A stretch of 64,000 bases of DNA from Obrimoposthia wandeli. Its lineage: Eukaryota. Below, one piece after another: positions 1-20,300 of this stretch (positions are counted from its first letter, which is position 1; each line of letters opens with the position of its first letter). The stretch lies in assembly GCA_977020255.1 (NCBI GenBank), contig CDROCS010006901.1, positions 124,001 to 188,000 of the forward strand, written 5' to 3'. The notes under the pieces are model-generated. The model was not told the DNA's origin and ran no database searches. It worked only from the letters and a program-made list of their open reading frames with translations. Both the position numbers and the translations under genes were made by a program.

Positions 1-403
1 TGTGACTTATATAGTCAACTATGTGCTGTCAATCAGCACTCTCGAAATCAAATCGTGAGTCCGGCTTGGCGGCAGCTGCTACAACGGATCGATTTAAATT
101 AATTGCACGTAAATGTGCTTACCTTTTTCTGCTGACGTTTTTCTTTCTGCTGACGTTAGCAGATTTCTAAATTATTCCCGTTTTTTGCTTTTTGCACTTT
201 TGGGTTAATTAACTTAACTTTTATACATTTCACACCATACACGACCTTCGTGGTCCTCCTAATTTTTACCCTAAATTCCACTAATTTTGATTCTAAAACT
301 AAATTTAATATTTTAATTTAATTTTCAACCTTGCTTTCAAGGATTTTTATTTTAGTATTTAATCGACTAAAATATTTAAATTTCTTAATTCTCAAACCTA
401 ACA
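1..403 (-). repeat. 3' LTR (U3-proximal 403 bp visible)
   Basis: No mismatch seen by eye against 17365-17767; ends CCTAACA (TGTTAGG on the element strand) directly beside the PPT. Confidence 0.95.
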
Positions 404-1435
404 TACCTCTATCTTTGTACAACAAAACAAGATGAGTAGTATTAATATTATAAATCCAATGATCAGTGCCAGTATTGGATTAACCAATTCTAGAATACCA
501 TAACGTACTGCTGGTATTCCTTTACTCTTGATGGTTAATATTTTAAATTTGTGTGCACTTTGGTTGGACATGTCACTGAGAAGCACTATTTTAGTTTGTC
601 CAAATATGTAGTCTTCACATGTGACAACACTAACTCCATAATGTCCATTAAGTGTTATCATTTCGGTCGCTGGGACTATACACATTCGTCCTGGACATCC
701 TTTTACACACATGATCATCACGGCTCTACTGTGGGATGTCTTGATTATTTCTAGGGTGTTGTCTAGATTTCTCAAATGTAAATTATATTCGGATAGTGTC
801 ATCAATTCGGCTTTACTGGTTGGCATGGCTTGCAGTACCAATCCAATTACTACTCCATAAATCAATCCTTGTGCAACGGTGCACAGGGCCTTGACTGACC
901 TTTTGCAAAGGGTTTTAATTATCAATCGTTTGAGAGATATCTGTTTCTGATTGGTTCGTTTTGTTGTCTGTCGTTGTTTTGACATCTCCTCGATTCCATC
1001 TCGTCCGATAATCAACTGTACTGGTTTACCTTGTATCGTCAACTTTCCGAATCCATTTTTGGCGGACAAGCATGTTTTATGTCCTTCCATTGTTTCAATT
1101 ATCACTCTCTTACTTCCATACTCACGTGTTTTGATGACATCGCCGTTGAATATATACGTTGGTCCTTTTGTATCAGCATCTTTTTGTATTTCCTTTACAA
1201 CTCGTTTTCTCCGCTTGCATCCGGCGAATGTTGTTGATATTCGGTCAAGTGTGTGCTGTCGGTCAGCTTCATAATCTATTCGAAATTGATTCAGTATTCT
1301 GTTTTGTGGGTAAAATATCGCTTCATTTACTATGTTGTCTTCGATCCTTTCGTCTAGATATACAAGCACTTTGTTCGTTGGTCCATTTGGTCTTTTCATC
1401 TTTACAAACTGAAATCTTTTACTGTCGGTTCTCAT
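398..1435 (-). CDS. 3' accessory ORF, membrane protein of unknown function (internal signal-like segment, Cys-containing ectodomain, C-terminal TM); stop codon lies inside the LTR
   Basis: 345-aa ORF; hydrophobic ALCTVAQGLIYGVVIGLVLQAM and PILALIIGFIILILLILFCC; in frame with 1460-1774 across one TAG. Confidence 0.65.
   Translation of the reverse strand: MRTDSKRFQFVKMKRPNGPTNKVLVYLDERIEDNIVNEAIFYPQNRILNQFRIDYEADRQHTLDRISTTFAGCKRRKRVVKEIQKDADTKGPTYIFNGDVIKTREYGSKRVIIETMEGHKTCLSAKNGFGKLTIQGKPVQLIIGRDGIEEMSKQRQTTKRTNQKQISLKRLIIKTLCKRSVKALCTVAQGLIYGVVIGLVLQAMPTSKAELMTLSEYNLHLRNLDNTLEIIKTSHSRAVMIMCVKGCPGRMCIVPATEMITLNGHYGVSVVTCEDYIFGQTKIVLLSDMSNQSAHKFKILTIKSKGIPAVRYGILELVNPILALIIGFIILILLILFCCTKIEVC
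404..416 (-). promoter_or_regulatory. Polypurine tract (PPT)
   Basis: Element strand reads AAAGATAGAGGTA immediately before the LTR start TGTTAGG. Confidence 0.8.
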
Positions 1436-1459
1436 GGATTGAAGACATTTTCGGATGAT

Positions 1460-1774
1460 CTACACATCAATTAGTCCTAACAATACTAATAGCATCATCA
1501 GTGCCGGTGTATGGTACTGTATGGTGTAATTGTGGATTTCGTTAAACCAGGAACTATTTCCGTGGTTGGAGCCTATTTCCTGTGCTCCCGTTATCGGCAT
1601 TAAACAACTTAACAAGCCTATCGCTAGCAATCTTTGGTATTGAAAGCTGGGCACTGTTGTTGTAGCTTCATTTCTTTCTCGTTGTTGCTTCCTCTTTTCG
1701 GTGTATTTCTCTATTTCTCGAACGAGTAACGGTTTGAAATCCGTATTTGGTCTATTCTGTTTGATGTAGACCAT
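1460..1774 (-). CDS. N-terminal part of the 3' accessory membrane ORF (signal-like segment, N-glycosylation sequons, TM)
   Basis: LLAIGLLSCLMPITGA|QE, sequons NSS and NYT, ALMMLLVLLGLIDV; after TAG 1460-1462 eight sense codons lead in frame to ATG 1435. Confidence 0.55.
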   Translation of the reverse strand: MVYIKQNRPNTDFKPLLVREIEKYTEKRKQQRERNEATTTVPSFQYQRLLAIGLLSCLMPITGAQEIGSNHGNSSWFNEIHNYTIQYHTPALMMLLVLLGLIDV

Positions 1775-4442
1775 CGCTTCTTCTGGCGAGAATAATTGGA
1801 TTGATTTCCCCTTCGTATTTGTGAATCGGATACGGTATTACACTATCTTTAAGTATCTCAACTTGGAACTGTGCTCCATAGCACATGACAATTGTTTCCA
1901 ATTTACCCATGATGGACAATCCATCGAAATAGGTAACATTCAGCTTAGATATCGGTGTCTTCGCATAATTAATTAAGTTTACTCGTATCTCAGTTGATGA
2001 CGGCCATCGATTTTTTAGTAAAATTATAATTTCGTCGTTTATCGATGTGATCACACTTGGCGCGGATGATACTATTTCAGCATGATATTTTGGCTGGATT
2101 GAGTTGGTCACTTGTTCTCGGATCATATTGATTCTTTGTGGTTTTTTATTTTTAGCTTCCCACTTCCGGTATCCGCTGTCAATGCGTAACTCTGCCGTTG
2201 CTTTGATGATTTTATTGTTAGTCACTTCCGGATGGGTTGGCGAATGGAATCCTTCTATTACGCTCAACCTTACAGATACTTCCGTTTGATCTGTGTCTAA
2301 CCGGTGAGATTCTGGTATACAACATACAATTGTCTTTCCATCAAAGTATTTGGTGTCCATCTGACAAATTATCTTTTCAGTGTCAGCGTCGATTAAATGG
2401 ACTCTCATGATATCTCTTTTCCCATGTGAATTACGTAATACCATTATTACATCGTGGTATTCTTGTTTGAGTCTTTTGGTGTACCATGCAGTATGTGACC
2501 ACCGGCCGGTTCTTTTTTCTTCCTGACTGGCTAGTCCTGCTTCAGTACTGTCATAGTTCTGCCATGCAACTATGTTTGGTGTCAATGTGATTTCGATTAT
2601 CACTTTCTCAGTCGTAAACACATTGGAATTTTGATAAAGTGCTGCGACTAGTGTATTTCCGTCGTAGTATGACACTCTAAGTTCGCACAGAAATTCGTTT
2701 GTCAGTGCATCTTTCACAATGACTTCTTTAGCCACATCTGTGGGTTGTGTTTTTTCGAAAACAACTATTATCTCTTCGTCTTCTTCTAATATCTCTTGTG
2801 GTGCGACGTGTCGGATTACTTCCTTTTCCTCTTGGTACTTCATTCTGAGCATACCAATTCTCGCTGGTTTTTTCTCGCTACCACTCGTCATCATGTTTAT
2901 ATAGTTCCGATCACTTACCATTCGTGTAAGTTTAATGGTATTGGTATTCGATTTCGATTTCTGTGATCTTAACTCATATCGTGACGCATTATCTTTATTT
3001 AGTACTAATTTGCATCGATTTGCATGTACAATCATCGGTTCCTTGTTCCGATTCTCTTCGTTGATTACTTTCAAATTTGTTGAGGTTGTCTGGATCACCT
3101 TGTATGGTCCTTTGTATGGTCTATGAAGTTTAAACGATAGACCTGGTTCGATGACTGGATAAAATATCATCACTTGATCTCCGACTCTAAATTCATGCGG
3201 TTTTGCTTTTTTGTCGTATTGTTCCTTGTAACCTTCTTGATTGAATTTCAACTTCAATCCGGCTTTGGTCCAAGCATCTTGTAACCTTTCCTTCATGACG
3301 ACAATGTATTGTTCAGTTTCTAGGTACTGAGATGTTGGCTCGGTCCACTCCAGATCCATCGGCATATTGTTCTGTCTGAGATACATCAGATAGAATGGTG
3401 TGTGACCCGTCGCCTCTCGAACTGAATTCCTGTAAGCATATAAACATGAAGGTAAATATTTATCCCAATCCTCTTGCTTGTCGGAGCAATAGGATTGTAC
3501 CATCATACATAAAGTTTTATTAAACCTTTCTACCAGACCATCTGTCTGTGGGTGATATGGTGAAGTTTGTAACTTCATGATTCCGAATATCTTCGATACT
3601 GCTTTGATTACTTCTCCAGTGAAGTTCTTACCTTGATCCGTTAACAACTTTCTAGGCACTCCGTATCGAAATATTATCTCTTCTACTAAGATTTGTGCTA
3701 TTGTTTCAGCCTTCTGGTTCTGTATGGGATATGCTTCTACCCATCTCGTCATGTAATCCGTAAATACTATGACATACTTGTTTCCTTTACTTGATTCTCT
3801 CAATGGTCCCAATATATCCATCGCTGTGAATTCCATTGGTGCCAAGGGAACTGGCATTGGTTTCAGTGGAACTTTAGTACGAGTTCCGGTGTCTTTTCTG
3901 GTTAAACATACTTTACATTGTTTACACCATTGTTTTATGTCGTCTTCCATACCATCCCAATGGTACTTCTCTTTGATTCTGGCTATTGTCTTTCGCCCTG
4001 ACAGATGTCCTCCTAGTGTTCCGTCGTGATACTGGATCATCACTGCTGTTTTCAATGACTTCGGAATTACTACTACTATCTTTCCGACATTATTGACAAT
4101 ATACAAGATGCCTTCTTTTATCGAGTATTTTTTCGTCATTTCATCGTTTAGATCTCCTTTCACCAACAATTCTTTAGTTAGACTCAGTTCTTCATCTTCT
4201 TTCTGTTCTTTGATGATCTCTTTGTCTATTTTACCCGTCTTTAGCAAAATCGTCAGTAGATTTGCTTCTCCTTTTTGGTCATTGGTTTCATCTTGTTTTT
4301 CCTCTGGAATTATGTTTCCTTTTTCATCTACATTTGTCAATCTCGACAAACAATCTGCGTTGCCGTTCGACTTTCCGGTTCTATAACGGATTTCTAGATC
4401 GAATTCGGCCAATTTTAGAAACCATCTGTTTAATCTACTCAT
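1752..4442 (-). CDS. pol part 3: RNase H end, integrase (HHCC, DDE, GPY/F) and a ~380-aa C-terminal extension with three repeats
   Basis: H..GGH...CKQC; AMDILGPL, TDQGKNF, QTDGLVERFNKTL; PYKGPYKV; three YxDG-containing repeats. Confidence 0.95.
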   Translation of the reverse strand: MSRLNRWFLKLAEFDLEIRYRTGKSNGNADCLSRLTNVDEKGNIIPEEKQDETNDQKGEANLLTILLKTGKIDKEIIKEQKEDEELSLTKELLVKGDLNDEMTKKYSIKEGILYIVNNVGKIVVVIPKSLKTAVMIQYHDGTLGGHLSGRKTIARIKEKYHWDGMEDDIKQWCKQCKVCLTRKDTGTRTKVPLKPMPVPLAPMEFTAMDILGPLRESSKGNKYVIVFTDYMTRWVEAYPIQNQKAETIAQILVEEIIFRYGVPRKLLTDQGKNFTGEVIKAVSKIFGIMKLQTSPYHPQTDGLVERFNKTLCMMVQSYCSDKQEDWDKYLPSCLYAYRNSVREATGHTPFYLMYLRQNNMPMDLEWTEPTSQYLETEQYIVVMKERLQDAWTKAGLKLKFNQEGYKEQYDKKAKPHEFRVGDQVMIFYPVIEPGLSFKLHRPYKGPYKVIQTTSTNLKVINEENRNKEPMIVHANRCKLVLNKDNASRYELRSQKSKSNTNTIKLTRMVSDRNYINMMTSGSEKKPARIGMLRMKYQEEKEVIRHVAPQEILEEDEEIIVVFEKTQPTDVAKEVIVKDALTNEFLCELRVSYYDGNTLVAALYQNSNVFTTEKVIIEITLTPNIVAWQNYDSTEAGLASQEEKRTGRWSHTAWYTKRLKQEYHDVIMVLRNSHGKRDIMRVHLIDADTEKIICQMDTKYFDGKTIVCCIPESHRLDTDQTEVSVRLSVIEGFHSPTHPEVTNNKIIKATAELRIDSGYRKWEAKNKKPQRINMIREQVTNSIQPKYHAEIVSSAPSVITSINDEIIILLKNRWPSSTEIRVNLINYAKTPISKLNVTYFDGLSIMGKLETIVMCYGAQFQVEILKDSVIPYPIHKYEGEINPIILARRSDGLHQTE

Positions 4443-5215
4443 CTCATCTCTATGTTTATATAAGAACTGTAGTGGTTTGTGATCTGTATACAGGAATACT
4501 TTTGTCCTAGCAAATAGTGTCTATATTGTCTACATGAATACACTATGGCTAGACATTCCTTTTCGATAACAGAGTATCCTCTTTCGGCTCTGTTTAATCC
4601 TCTACTCGCATACGCGATGACGTGTTCTCTTCCTTCGTCATCCTCTTGTCCCAATACTGCTCCTACAGCATAGTTACTTGCATCTGTCATGAGTATGAAT
4701 TGTCGGTTTATATCTGGAAACGCTAATATTGGTGCTTTTATCAGTCTTTCTTTTAAATGCTCGAACGCTTGTTGGGCTTCTTCTCCCCATATGAACTTCT
4801 CATCTTTTCTCGTCAACTTTCTCAGTGGTGTTGGTATATCTGAAAAATGTTCAACAAATCGTCTATAATAATTCGCAAGACCTAAAAAACTCTGTATCTC
4901 TTTAACAGTCTTTGGCGCTAAATGCGCTTTTACTTTCTCGATCTTTGCTGGATCAGGTCGAATGCCTTCTTTCGATACTATATGTCCTAAAAATGTTACT
5001 CGCTCTTTGGCCCATTCGCATTTTGTAGGTTTAACTTTTAATTTAGCGTTTTCCAGTCTTTTAAATACAACTTCAAGATTTTTTAAATGTTCTTCGAACG
5101 TTTTCGAAAATATTATTATGTCATCAATATAAACCATCGTGTTTGCACACGATGCGAGTACAAAATTCATACAACGCTGAAATGTTGCTGGAGCTCCTGT
5201 CAGTCCGAATGGCAT
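4439..5215 (-). CDS. pol part 2: reverse transcriptase C-terminal half and RNase H (frameshifted at both ends)
   Basis: MPFGLTGAPATFQR, YIDD, FLGHIV, TDASNYAVGAVL, YSVIEKECLAIV. Confidence 0.95.
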   Translation of the reverse strand: MPFGLTGAPATFQRCMNFVLASCANTMVYIDDIIIFSKTFEEHLKNLEVVFKRLENAKLKVKPTKCEWAKERVTFLGHIVSKEGIRPDPAKIEKVKAHLAPKTVKEIQSFLGLANYYRRFVEHFSDIPTPLRKLTRKDEKFIWGEEAQQAFEHLKERLIKAPILAFPDINRQFILMTDASNYAVGAVLGQEDDEGREHVIAYASRGLNRAERGYSVIEKECLAIVYSCRQYRHYLLGQKYSCIQITNHYSSYINIEMR

Positions 5216-7125
5216 CTTTTCGCATTCGTATAATCCATCTCCGCAGTTTTGTGTTTATCCTCTTCCTCTATCTCGATTTGCCAGTATCCACTCTGCAAAT
5301 CCAATGTCGTAAAATAATCTGAATTACCCAATTTATCGAGCATCTCTTCGATTCTAGGTAATGGATACACATCTTTTCTTGTGATCTTGTTCAGTTCTCT
5401 GAAATCTATACAGAATCTAATTTTCACATCCTTCTTTTTTACCAACACCACAGGTGCTGAGAATGGCGAAAAACTCGGTCTAATTACTCCTGTTTTAGAC
5501 ATATCTTCAATCTGACTTTTTACTTCATCTTGTAATTGTAATGGTACTCGGTATGGTCTTCTTCTGACTACTTTGTCTTCTGTCAGTGGTATTGTATGTT
5601 TTATGACAGGTGTTTCTCCTATGTCATATGGATTTTTTGCAATTACTTTTGGAAATTTATGTATTAGATCAAGTAATTGTTTCTTTTCTCTAGTTGTCAG
5701 TCTTTCTGATTGGATTACTATTTCTTCGTAATCATTCGTATCTTTATCGAGTTTCATAGCACACACGGTGGGATTCTCCATCTGTGCTATCTTTCCCAAC
5801 CTCATTCCTCTGTATAATAGGATGTCATTGTTGGTTGTATTCATCAGTCTAACTGGTATTTTGTGGTTTTCGATCAGGCATACTGTACTCACAACTGGTA
5901 ATTCGTATTTCTCTATGAAATCTCGTGATGGTTCGAACACAACTGGTCCTTTATCTTCTGATAATGTGTGACCTTGAATGAGAAATTGTGATCTTTTACC
6001 GATTTTTATAGGATTCTCTATAATTACATCAATTTGGTTTATTTGTCTGTTTGATGTGCTATCCTTCAATCTTGGATCTTGTAAATCAATACTTATCCCT
6101 TTAAGTTGTGATAGTACATCCATTCCTAAAATTGTAGGTTCAGGACATTCTTTCATGATTCTAACTGGTATAGTGATCGTATTACGTCCAATTATAAATG
6201 TACATGGTAATATTCCCGTCACTTTTACAGGGTCTCCATTGACCGATACCAAGAATTCATCTGGTTCTGCCATTGTTCGTTTCTGTTCCTCTGTCAAACA
6301 GTCTTCACTTACTATCGAAGCTACAGCACCTGTATCAATTAAGGCTTTTACTCTTAAATTATTTACTCTAATGATAGCTGCTGGTCGCTGTGCTCCATTT
6401 ATGTTTCCCATATGGTATATTGTATTTATCGAATTATTACACTCTGTCAGTCCACTTCCTGTGTTTGGATAGTGGAATCTAATGTTTCTCACTTGTCGAT
6501 CTATTATTCTTCGACAAATCGGACATGATACCATTTCATTCGCACATCTCCGACATGTTCTTACATGTCCGCATGGTAGAAAGGCAACTTCTATTTTGTT
6601 GATCATGCAAACTGCGCATTCCGGATCTTCTAGTACGTATTCCAGTTCATTTATGTACTCTTTCTCTTTTGTTTCAATTGTACTGTCATCTTTATCTCGC
6701 AGTAATTCAAAAATCGATCCGTATCCGTTTCGCGTAGTTTTTATTTTTAATTCTACCAATTCTCTGATTCTTTCTGCTTCTTTTGGATATAATCTTCTCA
6801 CGAATGACACTACCGGTGTGTCTTGTTGAGCCAAAATCTCTTTCCGTGTGATTTGGTATTCGATTATACATTCGGTTTTCTGTTCTTTTTGCTTTATTTT
6901 GTTTTTAAAAGTACAAAATTCGCAAAATTCATGATGTAAAATTTTCTTAGGTAGCTCAAGAGTGTATCTGTCGATAATTCGTTCTTTTTTACACTTGTGG
7001 CATTTAATTACGTCTTTACCATCCTTTTTTATAGCAAAAAGTCCCTTTTTTGCCAATTTTTTAAGTCTTGGATCTTCGAAGGTTACTTCTCGATATTGTT
7101 CGTCACATTCGTTCACTTCTCGCAT
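5200..7125 (-). CDS. pol part 1: degenerate BIR, IAP-type C3HC4 RING, retropepsin 2, RT N-terminal half
   Basis: LAKKGLF..DVIKCHKC..HHEFCEFC; CAVCMINKIEVAFLPCGHVRTCRRCANEMVSCPICR; ALIDTGA...ILGMDVL; RFCIDFRELN, YPLPRIEEML, LDLQSGYWQI. Confidence 0.93.
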   Translation of the reverse strand: MREVNECDEQYREVTFEDPRLKKLAKKGLFAIKKDGKDVIKCHKCKKERIIDRYTLELPKKILHHEFCEFCTFKNKIKQKEQKTECIIEYQITRKEILAQQDTPVVSFVRRLYPKEAERIRELVELKIKTTRNGYGSIFELLRDKDDSTIETKEKEYINELEYVLEDPECAVCMINKIEVAFLPCGHVRTCRRCANEMVSCPICRRIIDRQVRNIRFHYPNTGSGLTECNNSINTIYHMGNINGAQRPAAIIRVNNLRVKALIDTGAVASIVSEDCLTEEQKRTMAEPDEFLVSVNGDPVKVTGILPCTFIIGRNTITIPVRIMKECPEPTILGMDVLSQLKGISIDLQDPRLKDSTSNRQINQIDVIIENPIKIGKRSQFLIQGHTLSEDKGPVVFEPSRDFIEKYELPVVSTVCLIENHKIPVRLMNTTNNDILLYRGMRLGKIAQMENPTVCAMKLDKDTNDYEEIVIQSERLTTREKKQLLDLIHKFPKVIAKNPYDIGETPVIKHTIPLTEDKVVRRRPYRVPLQLQDEVKSQIEDMSKTGVIRPSFSPFSAPVVLVKKKDVKIRFCIDFRELNKITRKDVYPLPRIEEMLDKLGNSDYFTTLDLQSGYWQIEIEEEDKHKTAEMDYTNAKRCHSD

Positions 7126-10100
7126 AACTTCGATATATCTTCAATTCGACTATTCGTTATTACTCTACCTGTTATTAGGGCTGATTCTCCTTTTGGAATC
7201 CCGTCACTGTAATCGAAATCGGGTGCTTTTCCCGTTTGGATTTCTGGTACGTTTGAAGTTTTTAGTTTTAAAAGAAATGGACAATTTGGTGCATCTCTTT
7301 TATGACGTCTCATTGGGTTTTCATTCTGTTCCCATTCTCTAAACTTTACTCTACACCATACGCATCGTACTACTATCTCCTGACCATAACTGCTTGTCGC
7401 GTTTAACATTTCTAAACCTGATCTTGCCATTTTACGTGCCATTCCTTTTGAATAGTACTGTTCTAATATATTTCGTCTCTTTCTCTCGAATCTCATGGGA
7501 TCCCTTTCTGACAGATTTACATATGTTATTTTTCTCCTCGTCGTATCTTGTGGTCCGAAATTTACATTTTTGTAGTGAAGTATCGACTTTGCTAGCGCTT
7601 CCTGTTTTCTGTCTGGGTACGAACCTCCCATACGGAACGTAGTGCATTTTTCCTTTTCGACTATGGGTCCTCTCAACATTTTTATCTCTCTCACTGAACT
7701 GTCATTCTTACAACTCTTGTTGTTTGGTAGTATAATTATTCCTTCAAACATTCGTATTACGTCCATCCCAATCATGACTGGACTTCCGCAATCTGTGAAT
7801 ATTCTAGCATTTAACTGCAATGCTCTTCCATCGATATTCAACGAACATTTCAGTGTTCCTTCCGACACTACATCTGTACCATTCACGTTAACAAATGTCT
7901 GTTTTCTAGGACATACTTCTCTTAATTCTTTTGATGACAAGATTTCTTTACTTAGCACTGATACTGCTGATCCGGTATCAACTTCGGCAAGATATTCTCT
8001 TCCGTTCAATGTTACTGCTACTTGTGGTGGAGCATTTGGATTCTCATTTGATATTCTAGATTTCAGAATTCTTCTGGAATTATCTTTTTTGTCTTTTTCC
8101 TCTGCTTGTGGAATTTCACTGTAGCTCACTTTAGGCCATCTTATCATTAAGATGCCTCTCTTGAACTTTTCCTTCTCTTCCTTCAATTCCTTCATTGGAT
8201 ATAGGTTTAACGCCACTTCTTCCTTGTCTGGTAACGGAATCTTTGATTTTCCTGGTATCTTTGCATATACTTCTGGACTATCATTATCGTCGTCGTTGTC
8301 GTCTCGATAGTTTCTTGGTTCTCGCATCATGGTTCTCGTTTGGTGTTGTTCCTTCTTGAGGGCTCGCAACTCGTTCTCGTGATGATGGTGCATTAGATAT
8401 TTTGCTAAAAATGGAAAACATCCAATTATAAGTTGCCAGGTGATTCCGGTTATCCTGTATAAACTATACGTAGACAACACCTGGGCTATAATTACCTGCA
8501 CAAATTTAATTATAACATAAATACCTATGATACCCGAAAATAGTTGTCCTAAAACAAGGAATTTTCCCCACATCTTTCTAAGTGTCTGATGTGCTGCTTC
8601 CTTGAAATGACTTGGCGATAATAACATATCGAAATTCGCATATCTCGCTCCTGGCGGTAATGCTCGATGTACCATCTCCGTAAGTACTCTGGCTCTTCTT
8701 ACTGGAAACATTATTTCGTTCCACGCCGCTTTTAAATCTTTTTCATTGTACAATCCTGCGTTCTCCATATTTTCCACCGCTTGGAATTTCATTTTACCTT
8801 TAAGGTTCGTCATTCTTATCATCGCTGGGGTTGTCGTTGGCTTTCGATCAGGTAACGTTATCCATAGATTATTCGTCATCTGATATTCAGGTGCCATTAT
8901 ATTAGAGCAGCTGATTTCTTTAGTTGTAGTGTCTTTTGGAAGTAACATTCTCGTGATTGGTTCAACAAAAAGATCTTTTAAATTATACGTTACTGCCAAT
9001 TCGCTCGTACATCGATCTGTTTTTCTCAACTGTACCTCTACTTTATTACACTTGTAAGTATACAATACTTCTCCCATGGTTTTAGCAAATACTCCTTCAT
9101 CCAAGGGTAATAATGGTGCTACCATGTCTGGATTCGTAATAGCTAATGCTAACTTTGTTCTTACGATCTCTTTGTTTAACTGGCAATCTCTTTCGATCAT
9201 CATCCGATATAACTGTTCCATTTGCATCAATCCTTTATGATAATAGAAATCAATTTTATTATTAAAATACGTGTGTAGCTGCATATCTTTAGGTTTTAGC
9301 TTGGTTTCTGCCAATGCTATTGCTTCTTTAGACAAAACTATTCCTGGATAGTTTGTAGTACTAACAGTCATTCCGCATCGCGCTTTGTTTCTCTTTTTAA
9401 TAAATATCAATCCTTCTTCTATTGATGTTGCCATTAACAGTGTAGGTGTCTTTGTCATTGGAATTGGTCTTGTTTCATTTAGCAATCCTTTTCCAACTTT
9501 ATTATACAGGAATCCTTCTCCATCTTTATTATACAGGAATCCTTTTATTTTATTAAAACTAATCTCTTTCAAAAATACTAAAGAGCATTGCTTCGGATTT
9601 ATGTTATACACAATTGTGGATTCACCTGTAAAACAAGATGTATCTGTCATTTTACATTCTGGATACTTCATCATTAGTTGTGTCTTTTTATCAAAATTGG
9701 CGGTCCATGTTTTTAATTCAATTTTGTAAGTTACGTCCATTACTAACTCAGATACTTTGGTTCCACGCACGTTTTTTGTTTCTCCGTCACAAGATCCATC
9801 GGCCCATCGTTGTCCGACTCTCGTGACTGTTTCGTATCGTCTCACTCCAATTTTTACTTCAGGTTTGTAATTCTTGTCTACCTCTATTGTTCCCGTTCGA
9901 AATGCGTCTTCGCAATCTCTCGGCAAAACCTTATGTGCCTTGTACGGTGTGGTAGGTGTGATTTCTGACATAAAACTTCTATGACCACAATAGAATTCGT
10001 GATAACTTGAATGGATTGAACATTCTTTCACTTCTACTTGTGCTTTATCAACATCCTGATACACAAAGTAGTTTTCAACACCTTGAACTTCTAGTTTTGA

Positions 10101-11849: not shown

Positions 11850-11869
11850 CGTCTCCTTAGCTTCACTAA

Positions 11870-13846
11870 TTATCTTTTTACATCTTCCATACTCGTAGCA
11901 TTTCTCGCTGCTTCCACATGATCAGTCATAGGTTGTGCGTTACACGTTTTCTCTATTGGTGTCTCATACGCTTCTAGTATTCTATTCATTAAATCATTCA
12001 TCTCTTCTCTCGAGTGTAGACTTTTCTCTTGTTTCGACAACGTAGATGAATTCGCCATCTTTGTATGTGGTGAATCTTTAATTATTCCCAACATTCGTTC
12101 AAATTTACTATCACTATCTTCAAAATCTATTTCGCGTCGAAGCTCGGTCTCGCGATTCCTATCACTGTCATCGCTTACATAACTAAAATTTCCTTTCGGT
12201 TTCGGCGAACTCTCTCGACTATTTGTCTTGTCGACATTATTATTATTATATCTACCAGAATTATTATATATCTCAGCTCCTTGCTGTCCTACGTAATTAT
12301 TGTATCTCTCAGCTCCTTGCTGTCTGTCTGCATAGTTATTGTATCTACCTGGTGACTGTTGTCTATCTGTATACTGATTATTCAGTCTCCATGGCTGTGG
12401 AGTATATCCACCACCTCTATTCCATGGCGGAGGTGAATTATATCCTCTATAATTATTTCCAAAATTATTATTACCGAAATTATTATTTCCAAATCTGTTA
12501 GCTCCGAACTCTTTACTTCTCGTACAATCTCTCGAATAGTGACCCATTTGTTTACACGTGTAACACATTATTCTCCCTCGAATATCTATCTTATTTTGTT
12601 CATCTTCAAACTGTACTCGACGACTATTCTGTCTATTATCATAGCGTCCTCTAAAATCATTTCTTCGGAAATTCGATTCAAAACCGCTTCCTCGATTATT
12701 GAATCTTCCGTCACTATTTCCTGTATTATTTCCAAATCGAGAGTCACTTCGCTCTCCTCTGTTGGCGTTATAATTCCTATCGTCTCCTCTCCAAGGTTGG
12801 CGATTTCCGGAATTATCTCTATTAAATCTATTCCTGGAATCATCTCTATTTCTATTCCACGAATCATTATTATTTCTACCTCTTGAATCATCTCGATTCC
12901 TGTTCCAAGACTCACTATTATTTCTACCTCTCGAATCATCTCGATTCCTACTTCGGAAATTATCTCTATTTCCGTTACTGGATTCATCTACTTTTTCAAA
13001 CTTATTTTGTCCATAATTTCGATTCTGAAAATTACTCGGTTCTGTTTTATTCACGAAGACCTTTGTCTTATCGTCGTCACCTGCAGTCATTGCGTAAATT
13101 GCCAATGCTGCATTATTTTTTATATTTTTCTCAATCTCTCTCGCCTTTCGTACGGCATTATCAAAATCATTTGTATCCGATACTGCTAATAACACTTTAA
13201 TATCCTTTTTCAATCCTCCTCTAAATATATCTAACAAAACCTCTGCCATTTCATTTTGGTTCCGGTCATTTTCCGCTGCTTGTGCTTCTGGAGCTACAGG
13301 ATTACCGTCCTGATTTCTCATTATTCTTCTTGGGTACGCTCTTGCGGCCAAGGTTCTCAAAACATATGCGTATTCATTCACGCCTTCATCATGTTTCTGT
13401 TTCCGTTCTCTCATGAGTCGCTTATTTACTTTGGCTAAGTCTCCTAATACCAATTTTCCAATAAAAGCATTTTCCAACGTTGGCCAGTCTAAACGTTCTG
13501 CTTCTGTCAAATGTTTATACACTTCAAGTGCTAATCCGGTTAAATGTGCCTGTACTCTGACACATTTTTCTCTATCGTTCCATCCTTGAACATCTGCACA
13601 ACTCGAATATTCTGCGAGAAAGTCACAAATACTTTCCTCATCTCCTTTAAACTTTGTAATCTGCAATGATCCTGAAAAATTGGGTCTCAACGTCGCATTT
13701 AAAGCTTGTGCCAACTGCTCGGCATTCATTTCACCTACATTATTTCCTGCATTAATATCTGCTTGAGCTCCTGGGTGAGCCATATTTTCAGCTATATCCT
13801 CTTCAACTATTCCTTCAATATTATTTACTTGAACTTCTTCAATCAC
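11870..13846 (-). CDS. gag: Gag (retrotransposon capsid domain, R/N/D/G-rich repeats, CCHC zinc knuckle)
   Basis: ITKFKGDEESICDFLAEYSSCADVQGW capsid-like region; CYTCKQMGHYSRDC; track start is GTG, first ATG at 13783. Confidence 0.92.
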   Translation of the reverse strand: MIEEVQVNNIEGIVEEDIAENMAHPGAQADINAGNNVGEMNAEQLAQALNATLRPNFSGSLQITKFKGDEESICDFLAEYSSCADVQGWNDREKCVRVQAHLTGLALEVYKHLTEAERLDWPTLENAFIGKLVLGDLAKVNKRLMRERKQKHDEGVNEYAYVLRTLAARAYPRRIMRNQDGNPVAPEAQAAENDRNQNEMAEVLLDIFRGGLKKDIKVLLAVSDTNDFDNAVRKAREIEKNIKNNAALAIYAMTAGDDDKTKVFVNKTEPSNFQNRNYGQNKFEKVDESSNGNRDNFRSRNRDDSRGRNNSESWNRNRDDSRGRNNNDSWNRNRDDSRNRFNRDNSGNRQPWRGDDRNYNANRGERSDSRFGNNTGNSDGRFNNRGSGFESNFRRNDFRGRYDNRQNSRRVQFEDEQNKIDIRGRIMCYTCKQMGHYSRDCTRSKEFGANRFGNNNFGNNNFGNNYRGYNSPPPWNRGGGYTPQPWRLNNQYTDRQQSPGRYNNYADRQQGAERYNNYVGQQGAEIYNNSGRYNNNNVDKTNSRESSPKPKGNFSYVSDDSDRNRETELRREIDFEDSDSKFERMLGIIKDSPHTKMANSSTLSKQEKSLHSREEMNDLMNRILEAYETPIEKTCNAQPMTDHVEAARNATSMEDVKR

Positions 13847-14424
13847 TACTGGATTGGCAATTTCAATTTCTTCTGGGTTTTGAACTTCAAGATTATCAAT
13901 TTCTTCTGGGTTTATGTCACCAATTAACTCAGTCAGATCAAAACTATCGGTTGAAACTGCTGATTGATTTACGTCTCTTTCTGATACGTTTTCTTCGACT
14001 CTAGTCTTTTCTGTTACTTTGTTATCTGTTTGGGGAACCTGTTCAATTCGGTTAACTTTATTATTATTTGTCTCTTCCTTGGGAATCTGGCTTTGTCTTC
14101 AAGTATTAAACGCGGGTCCTTTTCTATTATCCGTTGTCTTATCAATTATGTATTCGTTTACGATATCAATTTACTTATTATTTTTATCTTATTTCACAAT
14201 TCTTATTTTACGATTTTTTATCTCTTTAATTAGTTCGAGGACAGAGTCTCCCGACTTAACCTATTCAATTAATTACTTCGAGTATCAATCCACTCGATTC
14301 TCACTTTATCAAATTTATTTACGATTTTATCTTTTTAATTAGTTCGAGGACAGAGTCTCCCGACTTAGCTTATTCAATTAATTACTTCGAGTATCAATCC
14401 ACTCTATTCTCACTATCAAATTTA

Positions 14425-15019
14425 CTGACTCGAGGAACAAATCCACTCGACTTCTCAAAACCTATCAAATTCTTAACTTCGAGGAACAAATCTACCCGAT
14501 TTCTCAAAACTTATCAACTTCTTAACTTCGAGGAACAAATCTACCCGATTTCTCAAAAACTTATCAAATTCTTAACTTCGAGGAACAAATCTACTCGATT
14601 TCTCAACACTTATCAAATTCTTAACTTCGAGGAACAAATCTACCCGATTTCTCAAAAACTTATCAAATTCTTAACTTCGAGGAACAAATCTACTCGATTT
14701 CTCAACACTTATCAAATTCTTAACTTCGAGGAACAAATCTACCCGATTTCTCAAAAACTTATCAAATTCTTAACTTCGAGGAACAAATCTACTCGATTTC
14801 TCAACACTTATCAAATTCTTAACTTCGAGGAACAAATCTACCCGATTTCTCAAAAACTTATCAAATTCTTAACTTCGAGGAACAAATCTACTCGATTTCT
14901 CAACACTTATCAAATTCTTAACTTCGAGGAACAAATCTACTCGATTTCTCAACACTTATCAAATTCTTAACTTCGAGGAACAAATCTACCCGATTTCTCA
15001 AAAACTTATCAAATTCTTA
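14425..15019. repeat. 49/50-bp tandem array (~12 copies, mostly alternating A/B variants) in the 5' leader
   Basis: Unit CTTAACTTCGAGGAACAAATCTAC(C/T)CGATTTCTCAA(AA/C)ACTTATCAAATT. Confidence 0.95.
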
Positions 15020-15039
15020 TCTCAATTTACTTATATCTT

Positions 15040-15235
15040 CTTCTGAAACTTATTCTCAATTGTCTATATTCTTCTGCTGAAACTTATTCTTAATTTATCT
15101 GAAACTTATTCTCAATTTATCTGAAACTTATTCTCAATATCTGAAACTTATTCTTAATATCTGAAACTTATCTGAACTTATTCTATTTACCTGAAACTTA
15201 TTCTCAATTTTCCAAAACTTATCTGAACTTATTCT
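15040..15235. repeat. Degenerate ~20-22-bp tandem repeat in the 5' leader
   Basis: Repeated CTGAAACTTATTCT(C)AAT. Confidence 0.85.
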
Positions 15236-15263
15236 ACGTGAATTCGCTGTGTCCGACGAGCTA

Positions 15264-15281
15264 TCCTCACTCGGGGCACCA
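15264..15281 (-). promoter_or_regulatory. Primer-binding site, elongator tRNA-Met type
   Basis: Element strand TGGTGCCCCGAGTGAGGA; plus strand TCCTCACTCGGGGCACCA resembles the 3' end of animal elongator tRNA-Met (..GATCCTCACACGGGGCACCA, recalled from memory). Confidence 0.85.
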
Positions 15282-15346
15282 CTTTAATATGTTGGGGTTT
15301 CTATACGAAACTCGGTATAGATCCTCTTGAGTGCGGAGGGCCCCAA

Positions 15347-15358
15347 CGTGAGTTCGAT
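15347..15358 (-). promoter_or_regulatory. Putative primer activation signal (complement of the tRNA-Met T-arm)
   Basis: Plus strand CGTGAGTTCGAT equals the tRNA-Met segment just 5' of the PBS-paired region; next to the stem GTTGGGG(15291-97)/CCCCAAC(15341-47). Confidence 0.6.
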
Positions 15359-15769
15359 TAGAAGCAGGTCTTAAAGTTGGTCGTGGCCTACTTAGTTTTA
15401 TGGTTGCCTAATCTCTTGTACTATCTGAAGGTATTTGATTTGATGTCTCTTATTCTGAAGGATGCAAAAACAACTTGTTCTAATGTAGGAAATTGTTTAT
15501 TTGTAATTCACGAACTAAAACACAACAATACGTTTATGTACGTATTTTCTAAAAAGTATAGTAAAATTCCTAAGACTTCTGTAAGTCTCTACAACAAGTG
15601 GGGATGAACCACGTATCGATTTTATGTTAAGGGTGATCGAGTTTTTAGAGTCGTTCTTCTAACTCGCGAATAAGCTCAAGTTAAGATTTTCAAATTAATG
15701 TGACTCTTATGTCAAACTCTAACTTTAATTCCCAATTTAACTTTAATGGCAACTTTTATCTTTATACCA

Positions 15770-16436
15770 AAACTATGGCAATTTAGAAAAAACTTCTCTT
15801 CAAACTTTTATGGCAATTTAGACAAAAACTTCTCTTCAAACTTTTATAGCAATTTAGACAAAAACTTCTCTTCAAACTTTTATGTCAATTTAGACAAAAA
15901 CTTCTCTTCAAACTTTTATGGCAATTTAGACAAAAATTTCTCTTCAAACTTTTATGGCAATTTAGACAAAAACTTCTCTTCAAACTTTTATAGCAATTTA
16001 GACAAAAACTTCTCTTCAAACTTTTATGTCAATTTAGACAAAAACTTCTCTTCAAACTTTTATGGCAATTTAGACAAAAACTTCTCTTCAAACTTTTATG
16101 CAATTTAGACAAAAACTTCTCTTCAAACTTTTATGTCAATTTAGACAAAAACTTCTCTTCAAACTTTTATGGCAATTTAGACAAAAACTTCTCTTCAAAC
16201 TTTTATGGCAATTTAGACAAAAACTTCTCTTCAAACTTTTATAGCAATTTAGACAAAAACTTCTCTTCAAACTTTTATGTCAATTTAGACAAAAACTTCT
16301 CTTCAAACTTTTATGGCAATTTAGACAAAACTTCTCTTCAAACTTTTATGGCAATTTAGACAAAAACTTCTCTTCAAACTTTTATGGCAATTTAGACAAA
16401 AACTTCTCTTCAAACTTTTATGGCAATTTAGACAAA
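15770..16436. repeat. 36-bp tandem array (~18 copies) inside the LTR
   Basis: Unit AACTTTTAT(GG/AG/GT)CAATTTAGACAAAAACTTCTCTTCA. Confidence 0.95.
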
Positions 16437-16489
16437 TTCTAATGTCAAACTTTATGACAATTTTAGGACAATTTAGACAATTTTATTAA

Positions 16490-16768
16490 TCAAACTTTAT
16501 GATAACTTTAGGACAATTGAGACAAATTTTAGTAATCAAACTTTATGATAACTTTAGGACAATTGAGACAAATTTTAGTAATCAAACTTTATGATAACTT
16601 TAGGACAATTGAGACAAATTTTAGTAATCCAACTTTATGATAACTTTAGGACAATGGAGACAAATTTTAGTAATCAAACTTTATGATAACTTTAGGACAA
16701 TTGAGACAAATTTTAGTAATCAAACTTTATGATAACTTTAGGACAATTGAGACAAATTTGAGTAATCT
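16490..16768. repeat. 46-bp tandem array (~6 copies) inside the LTR
   Basis: Unit CAAACTTTATGATAACTTTAGGACAATTGAGACAAATTTTAGTAAT. Confidence 0.95.
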
Positions 16769-17369
16769 CTCTTACGTTTTTTGTCTCGAGGTTGAGGTAT
16801 CCTGAAGCGTTCCGGAATATACTGAGATCGAACACAAAAACCGATCGGCTGACTGAATTGGAATTTCCGAATGAAAATTCGCTGATATAGTGCTGACTGG
16901 AACAACGATTGAACTGGTTTACAAGCTCTGCTCCGTGATAGATCGAGATTTGTATGTCGCTGTTACGACGTTGCCCAAATCCGTGATAGATTGATCTTTA
17001 AGTCTTGTGTTGTATTGTCGCGCTTCGTCTATTCCGTCTTCTGTCTGGTCTCAGGAGTATTGATTGAGTGCGGTATTGATTTCTTATTTTTTCTGGGACT
17101 GTGTTTTGATTTACACTTTGTTGCTTTATATCTTTTCTAAGACTGAATTTTTCTCCAATTCAATTTCGCACTCTCTGCTAATTTCGAGGCTTATTTCTCT
17201 TTTCTAATCTGCCAAAGTGCTTTACCTGGAGAAATAGGTTAACTGCACTTAACTAAAAATTGCTCACCTCTGGACGATTAACACCTGCTTTTCCTCCAAT
17301 TCAACTTTTCTCTATCAGAGCCTCCGAGACTTGTTTCTCTCGTTTTTTGTTTTGTAGGAAGTGCTGTGA

Positions 17370-17377
17370 CTTATATA
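17370..17377 (-). promoter_or_regulatory. Candidate LTR TATA box
   Basis: Element strand TATATAAG ~390 bp into U3; TATAAAG at ~17124-17130 is an alternative. Confidence 0.3.
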
Positions 17378-20300
17378 GTCAACTATGTGCTGTCAATCAG
17401 CACTCTCGAAATCAAATCGTGAGTCCGGCTTGGCGGCAGCTGCTACAACGGATCGATTTAAATTAATTGCACGTAAATGTGCTTACCTTTTTCTGCTGAC
17501 GTTTTTCTTTCTGCTGACGTTAGCAGATTTCTAAATTATTCCCGTTTTTTGCTTTTTGCACTTTTGGGTTAATTAACTTAACTTTTATACATTTCACACC
17601 ATACACGACCTTCGTGGTCCTCCTAATTTTTACCCTAAATTCCACTAATTTTGATTCTAAAACTAAATTTAATATTTTAATTTAATTTTCAACCTTGCTT
17701 TCAAGGATTTTTATTTTAGTATTTAATCGACTAAAATATTTAAATTTCTTAATTCTCAAACCTAACAATTTTATTAATTCTTGAATCTATAATTTGAGTT
17801 TCATCAAAAAATATTTTATTGAAAAATTATTCTTTAGGTTCAATTTTAAAAATATATAATATTAGGTATTGATATTTTAATAGTAAATGAGTTTAGAATA
17901 AAATAATGAATAGGGCTTGAAATAAAATTATGGGTAGGGTTATACGCATAGATGTATGTAAGCAATAGACTAATATATGGAATCAATATAGAAATATTAT
18001 TACAAATATTAGGAAGAAACTTTTGATTCCTACTTCAATTAGAGAAAATAATTATTTTTATTCATTTTTAGACCACATTGTAACTTTCTGCAACAAATAT
18101 CTGTGTTTCTGTGATTTTAACGAAGGTCGAAAATTTACTAGACCATAGTTTAAATTTAATAAACTTTTTCTAATTGGCCGTAGTTTAAAATTTATGAAAT
18201 CATATTGCAACTATTTGCAACTTATGTGCAAGTTGTATGCAATAAATGTCTTAGTTCTGAATTCCTTGAATTTAAATTTATGTAAACGCTTTCCACTCAC
18301 AAATAAAAGTAAATGAAATTACTCAAAATAAGCTATTTTTAAATTTGACAAATACTTCTAAAGAAAATAATCTTTGTGTTAAATTTTTTTAAAAATTGCT
18401 AAGCCTTTTAAAAATTTAAACCAAAATGATTTTTGGAGAAAAAATTGACGTTAACATTTAAAATTTGAATTTGCACACACAAATATTGATGCGTTTAAAG
18501 AAAATGAGATGAAAACTGACGTACTATATTACATACTGACCATCAAATTAAATTGGCTTTAACGTACTCGGCTGAAATTTGAGCTACATTCCATAACCTT
18601 AACGAACTCGATTAAAATATGTTCTACATATGGTTTCCATGGTAATGACAAATGTTCTCAAAATAAAACTGGTCTAGATCTCTCGGAAGGTACCCACAGG
18701 CTTTCTACTATTTGTTTAAGTATTCAGATCCTACTACTTACTACCGATAAGAAATTTTATTCAAATTTAAACAATACTCTTCAAAAAGTTTGTGTATCAA
18801 TAAGAAATTGATATATGCTTATTTTCTCGTTTAAAAAATCTATATCTATTATTAGTATTTTTTGACATATATGGATTTAATAGATAGAAATTTATACGAT
18901 ATCTAAAGAATATATTTCAATTACCATGTAGGTGTTATTGAGTTTTAATAATATTCGATTATACTTAATGTAAACTTATCTAATACAGGTTCCTCTAATG
19001 CTTTTTCTAACCCTTGTCATTAATTCATTTATTTATGTTTAATTTGATTTAAACTAAATGGGGTATTATTATTATGAATTATTATATTGTACACATACAT
19101 ATTTTGTAAGTATTTCATTATATATTCCTTATATATTTATCTGCACACCATTAGACTTATCTGAGGATACATACATACACACATACATAAATTTAAATAA
19201 AACACTATTCCCTATCGCTAATTTATTTTACTTAATTTTGATTCTTAAAGGTCTGGTGCTACTACTGACCCAACTACTCACCTGCTACTCATGTTGATGG
19301 TACTGAACCGTTTTACTGTATATTTAGTGGCAGTGTTATTAATAAAAGATGTTGAAATTTAAAATATATTTTTCTATAAAAAGAATTCAAATACAAATGT
19401 TGTAAAAATGTTGTACCTGTAATAATAAAAAATAACTTGTGTCTTTGTAGGTTGGTTCTCGAAAGTCTGACCAAGATTAGACTATGTGATTTATGATGGG
19501 CTTTAATAAGTAGTTTTTTATAAATTGAAGGAGGACCAAGTTTTGTGGTCTATCCTATAGTGACAATATGACCTTATGACCACCTTAAAAATACAAATCT
19601 AATATAGTAAATGGGAACACTTGCCAACGCAGTCGGCCATGATGAGTTATGCCATAATCGGAATGAAGGCACCTATCCGTTTAAAACGGATATACTAGGG
19701 AGAACGACCATGAAAAATGATGTGCTCATGAGAAACTTTCGTCGAACACCAGATAATGCAGACTGTAAAAAGGTGCTCATTGAAATACTGGTTTATATAA
19801 ATTATGATTCAACTTAAAATTTGTTTTTTAAAATTCTTAAGTTTAGTCATTTAAACGCTAATTAATTGTTCTTTGTGATATTTTCTCTGTTTATTAAAAT
19901 CTCGATCAATGTAACTGCACCTATAGTTGCAAATTAGGTATATAATAGGATGCCATTAAACTGAAGAATTTTTTTAAAACTATCAGAAATCCATGCTGAA
20001 AAACTCGAATATTTTATGTTTGTTTACTGAGAACGACAGCATCATTAAAATACAATAAGAATAGAGTTGAAGCTATGGTAAGAGACAGTTGACTACTCCC
20101 TTTAAGAGCAATCGAAGGTAAACTAAAGCCTGTACATGTTTGATGCTTATCGACAGATAACTCATCCAACCCTAAATTAATGAGGCATATGTTCAAAGAC
20201 AAGATTATTGACTTTCATTACCCTTAACACACCATTCCCAGACCAGTAGTTTTTCATATAGAGAAGCTCATGCAGCCTATTTTTGTTGTTGTTGTTGATG

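Follow-up and report, generated by a model that had tools for sequence, protein, structure and literature searches.

Burro, a giant Gypsy element of planarians, is the closest described system. As section 7 of a 2019 review (PMC6431247) presents it, Burro has Ubi2/SUMO-like and BCL2-like domains, an in-frame env placed between gag and pol, a BIR, and a dUTPase-like domain. The review proposes that Burro meddles with host apoptosis and considers this worthy of experimental confirmation. A second group is the Ty3/gypsy elements of Platyhelminthes, Nematoda, and Bryozoa that have the order GAG-ENV-POL and an HSV/gB-type env (including Smed_errantivirus_1-6; PMC13524379), with coding spans of 14.5-18 kb in that paper's supplement. 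Its main text does not discuss cargo: the words Burro, BIR, Bcl, apoptosis, and phosphatase have 0 occurrences there.

We studied an element in 64,000 nucleotides of DNA (the window) from Obrimoposthia wandeli (contig CDROCS010006901.1, positions 124,001 to 188,000). A sequence-only reading had described it as a cargo-bearing Gypsy element, had named Burro as a possible precedent for the IAP part, and had suggested that the combination of cargo might be new. At its core the combination is not new: SUMO-like, BCL2, in-frame env, and BIR have already been published for the planarian Burro (PMC6431247). Our own view is that the element is a Burro-like flatworm Gypsy with very many copies and recent activity and that, judging from its sequence, it probably carries survival-type cargo that keeps the producing cell alive.

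A young, high-copy Gypsy element

The element lies on the minus strand, from window position -1931 to 17767 (19,699 nt). The earlier span, 398..17767, was right at 17767; the other end is at -1931 instead. All of the parts that had been named are there, in five consecutive frames. Their order is gag, ubiquitin-like, AT-hook-like, Bcl-2 fold, class III-type env, protease 1, BIR, degenerate BIR, cIAP-type RING, protease 2, dUTPase fold, RT, RNase H, and integrase, which includes the PR-RT-RH-IN order of Gypsy LTR elements. Nine database polyproteins (P0006-P0014; 2,855-4,057 aa), which we call the relatives, have the same domain order, with an in-frame env, protease, RT, RNase H, and integrase. 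The parts are:

15290..17767, minus: 5' LTR, 2478 nt, TG...CA, with 36-nt and 46-nt tandem arrays and the target duplication beside it
15264..15281, minus: primer-binding site, 8 nt in from the LTR, tRNA-Met(CAU)-like, from sequence
14099..15263, minus: 5' leader with 49/99-nt, 109-nt, and 22-nt tandem arrays
11870..14098, minus: gag frame of 742 aa between stops; single CCHC knuckle (Pfam), 12521-12565
11418..11648, minus: ubiquitin/SUMO-like domain, Pfam ubiquitin E 0.004 (weak)
10890..10919, minus: AT-hook-like motif; core in 35/5000 shuffles; same place in 4/9 relatives
10323..10760, minus: predicted Bcl-2-fold domain; BH2-like GGW kept, BH1 NWGR replaced
10182..10238, minus: hydrophobic, signal-peptide-like stretch before env, inferred from sequence; below the 19-residue hydropathy cut-off
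8292..10181, minus: class III-type (chuvirus/gB-like) env glycoprotein, Pfam PF24664 Monjiviricetes fusion glycoprotein, E 4e-95
7731..8039, minus: retropepsin 1, Pfam E 1e-5; DTG in 21/21 copies
7263..7502, minus: BIR1, canonical Cx2Cx16Hx6C, Pfam E 4e-9; motif in 20/21 copies
6913..7098, minus: BIR2, degenerate, Cx2Cx18Hx6C, E 0.008 alone; frame differs from that of BIR1 in the window copy
6472..6873, minus: UBA-like helical stretch (weak) and cIAP-type RING; RING Pfam E 8e-12, motif in 21/21 copies
6097..6393, minus: retropepsin 2, Pfam E 7e-8, DTG; motif in 20/21 copies
5776..6039, minus: dUTPase-fold domain between protease and RT; model pLDDT 78
4490..5613, minus: RT (YIDD) and RNase H (Pfam); two frame changes break the window copy here
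3009..4067, minus: integrase with zinc finger, DDE core, and GPY-type C-terminal part (Pfam)
1791..2843, minus: post-integrase stretch, 350 aa, matching no assigned family
1788..1789, minus: deletion junction; ~1.26 kb of sister-copy sequence missing
407..1787, minus: membrane-protein tail with three hydrophobic stretches; the window copy has one in-frame stop
404..417, minus: polypurine tract, from sequence
1..403, minus: inner end of the 3' LTR, which is 2335 nt whole and extends to -1931

The two LTRs are identical at 2327 of 2333 aligned positions (99.7%; 6 mismatches), and a 4-bp target-site duplication flanks the element, so this copy is young and its family was recently active. The leader has no minus-strand frame of at least 100 aa. 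The last 12 nt of the primer-binding site are one base off two Met_CAU rows in supplement 2 of PMC13524379. A neighboring TDP-43 exon had 5 matches, of which 3 have names, and those 3 are all from flatworms.

The window copy is a disabled deletion variant. It is broken at five frame junctions and lacks sequence that sister copies have at ~407, 1788/1789, and 5246; in these segments sister copies are at least 2.7 kb longer, which gives a length of at least 22.4 kb. Given these breaks and deletions, one might suspect a one-off nested chimera or an assembly artifact, and the break between BIR1 and BIR2, in a homopolymer-rich zone, is also found in 7 of 20 sister loci. We reject this explanation and give it almost no chance. 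There are hundreds of matching places, on different contigs; the LTRs match and have a target duplication; the nine relatives share the domain order; and public runs contain 94-96% of the sampled words (in one sample, possibly the source). The five breaks are open in 8/9, 13/20, 10/11, 10/11, and 9/9 sister loci. All 150 scored copies have the Bcl-2-like segment, at no less than 99% identity; their open frames range from 315 to 5,220 aa, and the 4.8-kb cargo region is covered at 98-100% in all 31 scored places. The sequence-only reading had worried that other copies might lack the cargo; the sister copies carry it.

From gag to the second protease

Gag is 23-29% identical to the gag regions of 7 of the 9 relatives. 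The ubiquitin/SUMO-like domain reaches E 4e-5 in P0013 and has dN/dS of 0.08-0.19 against three divergent relatives. The AT-hook-like motif is so named for its GRP core.

For the Bcl-2-like domain, we found no sequence match in Pfam, PDB, the Atlas, or 1.84 billion representatives. Its AlphaFold model (pLDDT 69) was built from element sequences alone, with no host Bcl-2 in the alignment. All 43 of the matches listed by Foldseek are Bcl-2-family chains (best E 8e-3, none below 1e-3). In a wide structural search, the model reached Z 12.8 (rmsd 3.4, 145 aligned); all 29 chains at Z of at least 8 are Bcl-2 folds, and the first unrelated chain is at Z 5.3. The top matches are BH3-binding Bcl-2 proteins, and vBcl-2 structures are among the matches. 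As modeled, then, 10323..10760 has the Bcl-2 helical fold. Seven of the nine relatives have no match to this domain and P0009 reaches E 0.7 only. The BH1 NWGR signature is absent from the domain throughout the element family; it is also missing from many viral Bcl-2 proteins. A52, A46, and B14, poxvirus proteins with a Bcl-2 fold that inhibit signaling rather than block apoptosis, match the model too, at a lower Z of 6.5-7.5.

The env has 14 ectodomain cysteines and, by hydropathy, a transmembrane stretch at 8466-8555. Downstream, the RING best matches cIAP1/cIAP2/XIAP, and the canonical BIR1 together with a C3HC4 RING gives an IAP signature. The earlier calls of a SUMO/ubiquitin-like domain, AT-hook, Bcl-2-like domain, env, two retropepsins, two BIRs, and a RING hold, with BIR, RING, and Bcl-2 folds all assigned by profile and structure searches, but the ubiquitin-like domain is weak and BIR2 is degenerate.

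This putative IAP is located between two intact proteases, in a slot that has other cargo in the relatives (ankyrin repeats in P0013, zinc fingers in P0006 and P0007, or no known family), which we did not find in print. A second protease-like match precedes the main one in 8 of 9 relatives and a further one follows the integrase in 6 of 9. A Maverick-like element in this genome carries the same IAP as a free-standing gene, and we did not find such apparent sharing in print either. The RING is internal to the polyprotein, whereas the free IAP ends at that point, four residues past the polyprotein's aromatic-proline pair. Aromatic-proline pairs are retropepsin sites. IAP RINGs are described as using a C-terminal aromatic residue (PMC5702613), and protease cleavage may free the C-terminus of this RING.

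The post-integrase DUSP pair and selection on the cargo

For a model of the dUTPase-fold domain, all 31 of the matches listed by Foldseek are dUTPases (best E 7e-4). Beyond the integrase, the missing ~1.26 kb encodes, in sister copies, a DUSP whose HCx5R motif is intact and the greater part of a second DUSP, which lacks the cysteine. Because the window copy lost this segment, the sequence-only reading could not have seen the pair. The sister DUSP matches Pfam DSPc at E 3e-35, has both the HCx5R loop and the general-acid aspartate when aligned to DUSP10, and retains its motif in 19 of 20 sister loci. Its best structures are DUSP10/MKP5, DUSP4, DUSP1, DUSP2, DUSP16, and DUSP8. A Pfam scan of 717 aa found no rhodanese/KIM docking domain ahead of it, so MAPK specificity is a best-hit argument only. 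We did not find in print any such element with what appears to be a MAP-kinase-phosphatase-like DUSP and a pseudo-DUSP. The tail continues in sister copies for at least 1.44 kb of coding sequence that is gone from the window copy.

The sequences indicate that the cargo is under purifying selection, which supports a function. Against four divergent relatives, the Bcl-2-like domain has dN/dS of 0.06-0.10 (over dS of 0.5-1.3), versus 0.30-0.39 for the adjoining linker. Variants among copies show a third-position excess. Among near-identical copies, shared synonymous and non-synonymous variants number 8 and 3 in BIR1, 6 and 2 in BIR2, 6 and 3 in the RING, 8 and 1 in PR1, 6 and 0 in PR2, 17 and 1 in DUSP1, 10 and 0 in DUSP2, and 23 and 1 in RT-RH; these counts are small, and the copies are related and were picked as best matches. 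Could the cargo be neutral captured sequence that rides on an active element? The relatives replicate without BIR or DUSP motifs, which all nine lack, and mostly without the Bcl-2-like domain, and constraint on the tail's final 480 codons is weak (20 synonymous and 18 non-synonymous shared variants). Yet an in-frame passenger needs only an open frame, as the linker does, and the constraint on the Bcl-2-like domain is far from that, while constraint on the IAP and the DUSPs is near that of RT. Neutral cargo is already largely refuted, and we consider it very unlikely. Selection is evidence of use, and it is silent on which use.

Possible functions and known systems

Our preferred explanation would work as follows. 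One long RNA would encode one polyprotein of ~5,200 aa (the architecture being taken from the copies). The signal peptide and transmembrane helix of env would thread env into the ER, and a signal peptidase cut would leave the gag-ubiquitin-like-AT-hook-Bcl-2 part in the cytosol with the signal peptide as its tail anchor, which is the topology of cellular Bcl-2 proteins. All parts past the env helix would be cytosolic. Cuts by the two retropepsins would free both Pol and the BIR-BIR-RING unit that they flank. After integrase would come a DUSP with its active site intact, a pseudo-DUSP, and membrane proteins. The death/stress pathway would be targeted at three levels, by a Bcl-2 fold, a ubiquitin ligase of IAP type, and a phosphatase of JNK/p38 type. 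JNK is described as a trigger of planarian apoptosis in PMC4055413. The likely purpose would be that the producing cell survives and stays quiet while expression and integration stress it. Anti-death function, including the suggested block of caspases and of the mitochondrial pathway, is inferred from the domains, as are expression and infectivity.

The cargo could instead be functional in signaling, defense evasion, or particle making. The Bcl-2 fold might be an adaptor decoy, the RING might degrade restriction or silencing factors, and the DUSP might act on the element or on non-MAPK substrates. The lost BH1 motif, the degenerate BIR2, the DUSP with no docking domain reported, and the A52/A46/B14 matches all point this way and away from a survival role, as does the ankyrin or zinc-finger cargo of the relatives' slot, which suggests general protein-binding roles. 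Also, all nine relatives lack BIR and DUSP motifs and most lack the Bcl-2-like domain, so the lineage does not need the kit for replication. On the other hand, three unrelated domains all come from death or stress pathways, the best structural matches bind BH3, and the IAP part has a canonical BIR1 and a RING of cIAP type. We regard this alternative as possible but do not favor it.

One can imagine a more elaborate form of the survival explanation: a three-level kit of tail-anchored Bcl-2 fold, protease-released IAP ligase from or shared with a Maverick-like virus, and JNK/p38 phosphatase with a substrate-trapping pseudo-partner would let expressing stem cells escape JNK-driven culling, and spread between cells via the class III env would rig cell competition in an animal that regenerates and yield thousands of copies. 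We doubt that all of this is right.

Burro/GYPSM1 of Schmidtea mediterranea and the Burro-like element of Dugesia tigrina have, by the review's description, a single giant ORF (4,873 and 5,140 aa; up to 5,220 aa here). Shared with Burro are gag, SUMO/ubiquitin-like, BCL2-like, and mononegavirus-like env followed by protease; BIR; a dUTPase-like domain between protease and RT; thousands of copies; tandem repeats; and a flatworm host. Burro exceeds 30 kb, whereas our element has 19,699 nt in the window copy and at least 22.4 kb with the lost segments, and Burro has two or three CCHC knuckles rather than one. MATH, ankyrin, Smc, and midasin-like domains, which vary among Burros, had no Pfam match in the window frames or sister tails. 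A second protease, an IAP-type RING, an AT-hook, and a phosphatase all go unmentioned in the Burro text of PMC6431247. Because it falls short of 30 kb, we file the element as Burro-like rather than as Burro1-4, with Burro compared by description.

The elements of PMC13524379 also have env between gag and pol, and their gB/chuvirus-type fusogen has a signal peptide and a transmembrane helix, as ours appears to. Our element has the features of that group (LTRs, a primer-binding site, gag, and an env with signal/transmembrane stretches ahead of pol), and the env rows look homologous by eye. Its env is 37-41% and its RT/RNase H 56-61% identical to those of the nine relatives, and the window copy is on a long branch in trees with them.

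This family makes the idea, from the part of the 2019 review on Burro, of meddling with apoptosis more testable, and adds support: a Bcl-2 fold backed by structure searches, cargo domains that are all under purifying selection, and young, abundant copies. New here are a third class of cargo (the DUSP and pseudo-DUSP), a slot between the two proteases whose cargo seems to be swappable, and a sign that, within one genome, a retroelement and a Maverick-like element have exchanged an IAP.

Viral anti-death proteins include baculovirus IAPs, the vBcl-2 proteins of herpesviruses, poxviruses, and asfarviruses, and the dual-specificity phosphatases of poxviruses and baculoviruses. Large DNA viruses have these three protein classes as separate genes, whereas our element has them as domains of one polyprotein. 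If the proposed function is correct, this would be a retrotransposon that uses the counter-death strategies of large DNA viruses.

Layout, copies and missing segments

The element in the window is an LTR retroelement, and its main landmarks are as follows.

15290-17767, minus strand: 5' LTR
403 to -1931 (past the window edge), minus strand: 3' LTR
15264-15281: tRNA-Met-like primer site
404-417: purine tract

The element is 19,699 nt overall, with TG...CA termini and a 4-bp target duplication on its flanks. It is young: the LTRs are identical at 2,327 of 2,333 aligned positions, and the two large gaps in their alignment (108 and 37 nt) both lie within tandem arrays. The coding region of this copy consists of seven stop-to-stop frames, in which Pfam recognizes a CCHC knuckle, two retropepsins (PR1 and PR2), RT, RNase H, integrase, a BIR (E 4e-9), a RING (E 8e-12), and, as the env, a Monjiviricetes fusion glycoprotein (E 4e-95).

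In the outermost part of the window (1-311), the contig depth summed across positions 1-200 is lower than that of the internal region by a factor of about 150, and there is a loose end at 312. Depth is not the same as copy number, but most family members may differ in the LTR beyond its inner 90 nt. On the other side, the first coding exon of a TDP-43 homologue (22035-22620, plus strand) lies 4.3 kb away from the 5' LTR; judged from this exon, the host is a flatworm (3 of 5 matches are named, all of them flatworms). At 25186-64000, a 10.3-kb unit is repeated in tandem about four times at 98-99.8% identity; every repeat includes AT-rich 51-nt arrays and a 405-nt stretch matching the 3' portion of 28S rRNA.

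The sequence-only reading took the cargo to belong to one element rather than to a nested chimera, and the other genomic copies bear this out. The cargo region is covered at 98-100% in 31 of 31 scored places, and of 11,686 first-look candidates for the Bcl-2-like segment, the 150 that were scored all show 99% identity or more, so this is no chimera. None of the 36 other scored places matches the 3' half of the window copy at full length. That the layout is an artefact is something we find scarcely credible. Genome scans gave 14,213 candidates for DUSP and 12,110 for BIR; these are not copy numbers, but the family likely has thousands of copies. A metagenome scan returned one 1.8-kb contig out of 78 candidates. 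No RNA data set was listed among those that contain the element, a result that carries no information on its expression.

Frames that are open around the Bcl-2-like segment range from 315 to 5,220 aa. The five breaks in the window copy are open in 8/9, 13/20, 10/11, 10/11, and 9/9 sister loci. Because these places are mostly open in the sisters, the natural design is a single giant ORF, of which the window contains a disabled copy; for the same reason, programmed frameshifts at the breaks are ruled out.

Sister copies also have segments that are missing from the window copy: about 1.26 kb at 1788/1789 (9 of 9 loci) and at least 1.44 kb at ~407, where 39 of 39 other matches end. Four public contig sets (from one sample, possibly the source) have loose ends at 1788/1789, ~407, and 5246. 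Splicing is ruled out as the cause of the 1.26-kb gap because the gap's ends are not GT-AG. The 1.26-kb segment encodes a dual-specificity phosphatase (DUSP1; Pfam E 3e-35) whose HCx5R loop is kept in 19 of 20 sister loci and whose best structures are DUSP10/MKP5 (E 9e-24), DUSP4, DUSP1, DUSP2, DUSP16, and DUSP8. Next comes a pseudo-DUSP without the catalytic cysteine (DUSP2; E 1e-6). The tail that follows (residues 590-1439 of P0016, a sister-copy protein) contains four hydrophobic stretches as well as a region rich in proline and tyrosine, which suggests extra membrane proteins. For this tail, Pfam and Atlas gave nothing but sub-threshold leads (Atlas best 0.82), so we claim no family.

The cargo: folds, selection, and purpose

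The Bcl-2-like segment has no sequence relative in Pfam, no match among 1.84 billion representatives, one irrelevant match by sequence in the PDB, and Atlas matches that are all under the Atlas recognition mark. So its identity was settled by relatives in the genome and by fold searches only. First, scanning the genome with Pfam's Bcl-2 family gave 30 matches out of 51 candidates, 10 of them above the cut-off, and five weak matches (L027-L031) fall on divergent relatives of the element. (Loci L012-L026 are host Bcl-2-family loci; L020 also contains a relic of the element's tail, 37% identical.) Second, a structure model made from element sequences only (pLDDT 69) hit Bcl-2-family chains in 43 of 43 Foldseek matches listed, with E never under 1e-3. 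In a structural search across 48,161 chains the model reached Z 12.8, every one of the 29 chains with Z of at least 8 has a Bcl-2 fold, and unrelated chains begin at Z 5.3; helical bundles may score high in such searches, but here the gap to unrelated chains is wide. The domain retains a BH2-like GGW and lacks the BH1 NWGR. The Bcl-2 fold that was proposed from sequence can thus be assigned, as can the BIR and the RING.

Within the IAP unit, BIR1 is canonical, BIR2 has a spacer of 18 residues (E 0.008), and the RING is nearest to cIAP1, cIAP2, and XIAP. A search through 1,232 candidates between 201 and 643 aa long turned up no homologue of the IAP cassette. The spacer between PR2 and RT has a dUTPase fold in its predicted structure (31 of 31 among the matches listed, best E 7e-4); a sequence search with the dUTPase-like profile gave no match. 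The ubiquitin-like domain is weak by itself (E 0.004) and clearer in the related database polyprotein P0013, and the AT-hook-like core is also in 4 of nine such relatives.

Catalytic and zinc motifs are intact, and the cargo is under selection. Comparison with four divergent relatives puts dN/dS at 0.06-0.10 in the Bcl-2-like domain, at 0.30-0.39 in the linker next to it, and at 0.11-0.26 in the N-terminal part of env. L029 is omitted from the Bcl-2-like range because it is too divergent for its codons to be compared (7 codons in that domain); the ubiquitin-like value from L027 (0.33 over 11 codons) is omitted as well. Among 9-21 near-identical copies, the synonymous/non-synonymous counts of shared variants are 8/1 in PR1, 8/3 in BIR1, 6/2 in BIR2, 6/3 in the RING, 6/0 in PR2, 23/1 in RT-RH, 22/0 in integrase, 17/1 in DUSP1, 10/0 in DUSP2, 11/3 in the first 405 codons of the tail (which are constrained), and 20/18 in the last part of the tail, and third codon positions account for 31 of the 41 shared variable sites in the IAP unit and for 16 of the 18 in DUSP1; these numbers are small, and the copies are related to each other and were chosen as best matches. 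By these counts, the constraint on the cargo is almost equal to that on the RT, and it would be quite surprising if the cargo were neutral.

It is conceivable, though we would not lean that way, that these constrained domains serve other signalling or evasion roles. We think that their purpose is probably cell survival. The signal peptide and transmembrane helix of the env would set the topology of the polyprotein, and the signal peptide would hold the Bcl-2 fold as a tail anchor does. The two proteases would excise the IAP and leave its RING with a free aromatic tail (PMC5702613 covers the role of this residue at the IAP RING). The DUSP would damp JNK/p38 signalling; in planarians, apoptosis is driven by JNK (PMC4055413).

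Relatives, free IAP genes, and known elements

Nine database polyproteins (P0006-P0014, among 945 candidates) share an in-frame env-protease-RT-integrase. Most of them have two protease-like domains, so the protease duplication is lineage-wide. The slot between the proteases holds ankyrin repeats (P0013), zinc fingers, or nothing recognised, and none of the nine has BIR or DUSP motifs. Past the integrase, six of the nine (among P0006-P0012) have a third protease-like domain, most with a D-T/S-G motif, and P0014 has an Ig domain. Our trees had no Burro reference and gave conflicting placements, and we did not use them.

Among the best BIR matches in the genome is another repeat (L054:677-1702 and L056; G000:C609) with a free-standing 341-aa BIR-BIR-RING gene. 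This gene is a homologue of the element's whole IAP unit (32% identity along 345 aa, E 1e-44), and its end lies four residues past the shared RING tail. A count by hand finds the 341-aa frame in about 50 of the 150 best BIR matches. Three pairs of BIR matches stand in inverted orientation with about 10.5 kb between them. Between the members of one pair we read 3 kb, which encodes an integrase of the rve-chromodomain type and gives a weak match to Adeno_PX; no polymerase or capsid was seen there. Given this integrase and the weak Adeno_PX match, we take the repeat to be Maverick/Polinton-like. In literature that excluded most subscription journals and Repbase, we found no report of an IAP common to Burro and Mavericks, or of a DUSP in a retrotransposon.

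As described in PMC6431247, Burro has domains of the SUMO-like, BCL2-like, BIR, and dUTPase-like kinds along with an in-frame env, and interference with apoptosis was already proposed for it. The IAP-like precedent that the sequence-only reading mentioned agrees with this, and the combination of Bcl-2-like, env, and BIR, which it put forward as possibly new, had been described. PMC13524379 lists flatworm GAG-ENV-POL elements with a gB-type env, and its available part does not discuss cargo; the available parts of PMC11410931 and PMC10680173 have nothing further about domains. How new the RING, the second protease, and the DUSP are may depend on Grohme 2018 and Repbase, which lie outside our comparison. 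Burro elements are over 30 kb long and have two or three CCHC knuckles, whereas ours is shorter (19,699 nt) and has one knuckle. Because of these differences, we file the element as Burro-like rather than as one of Burro1-4.
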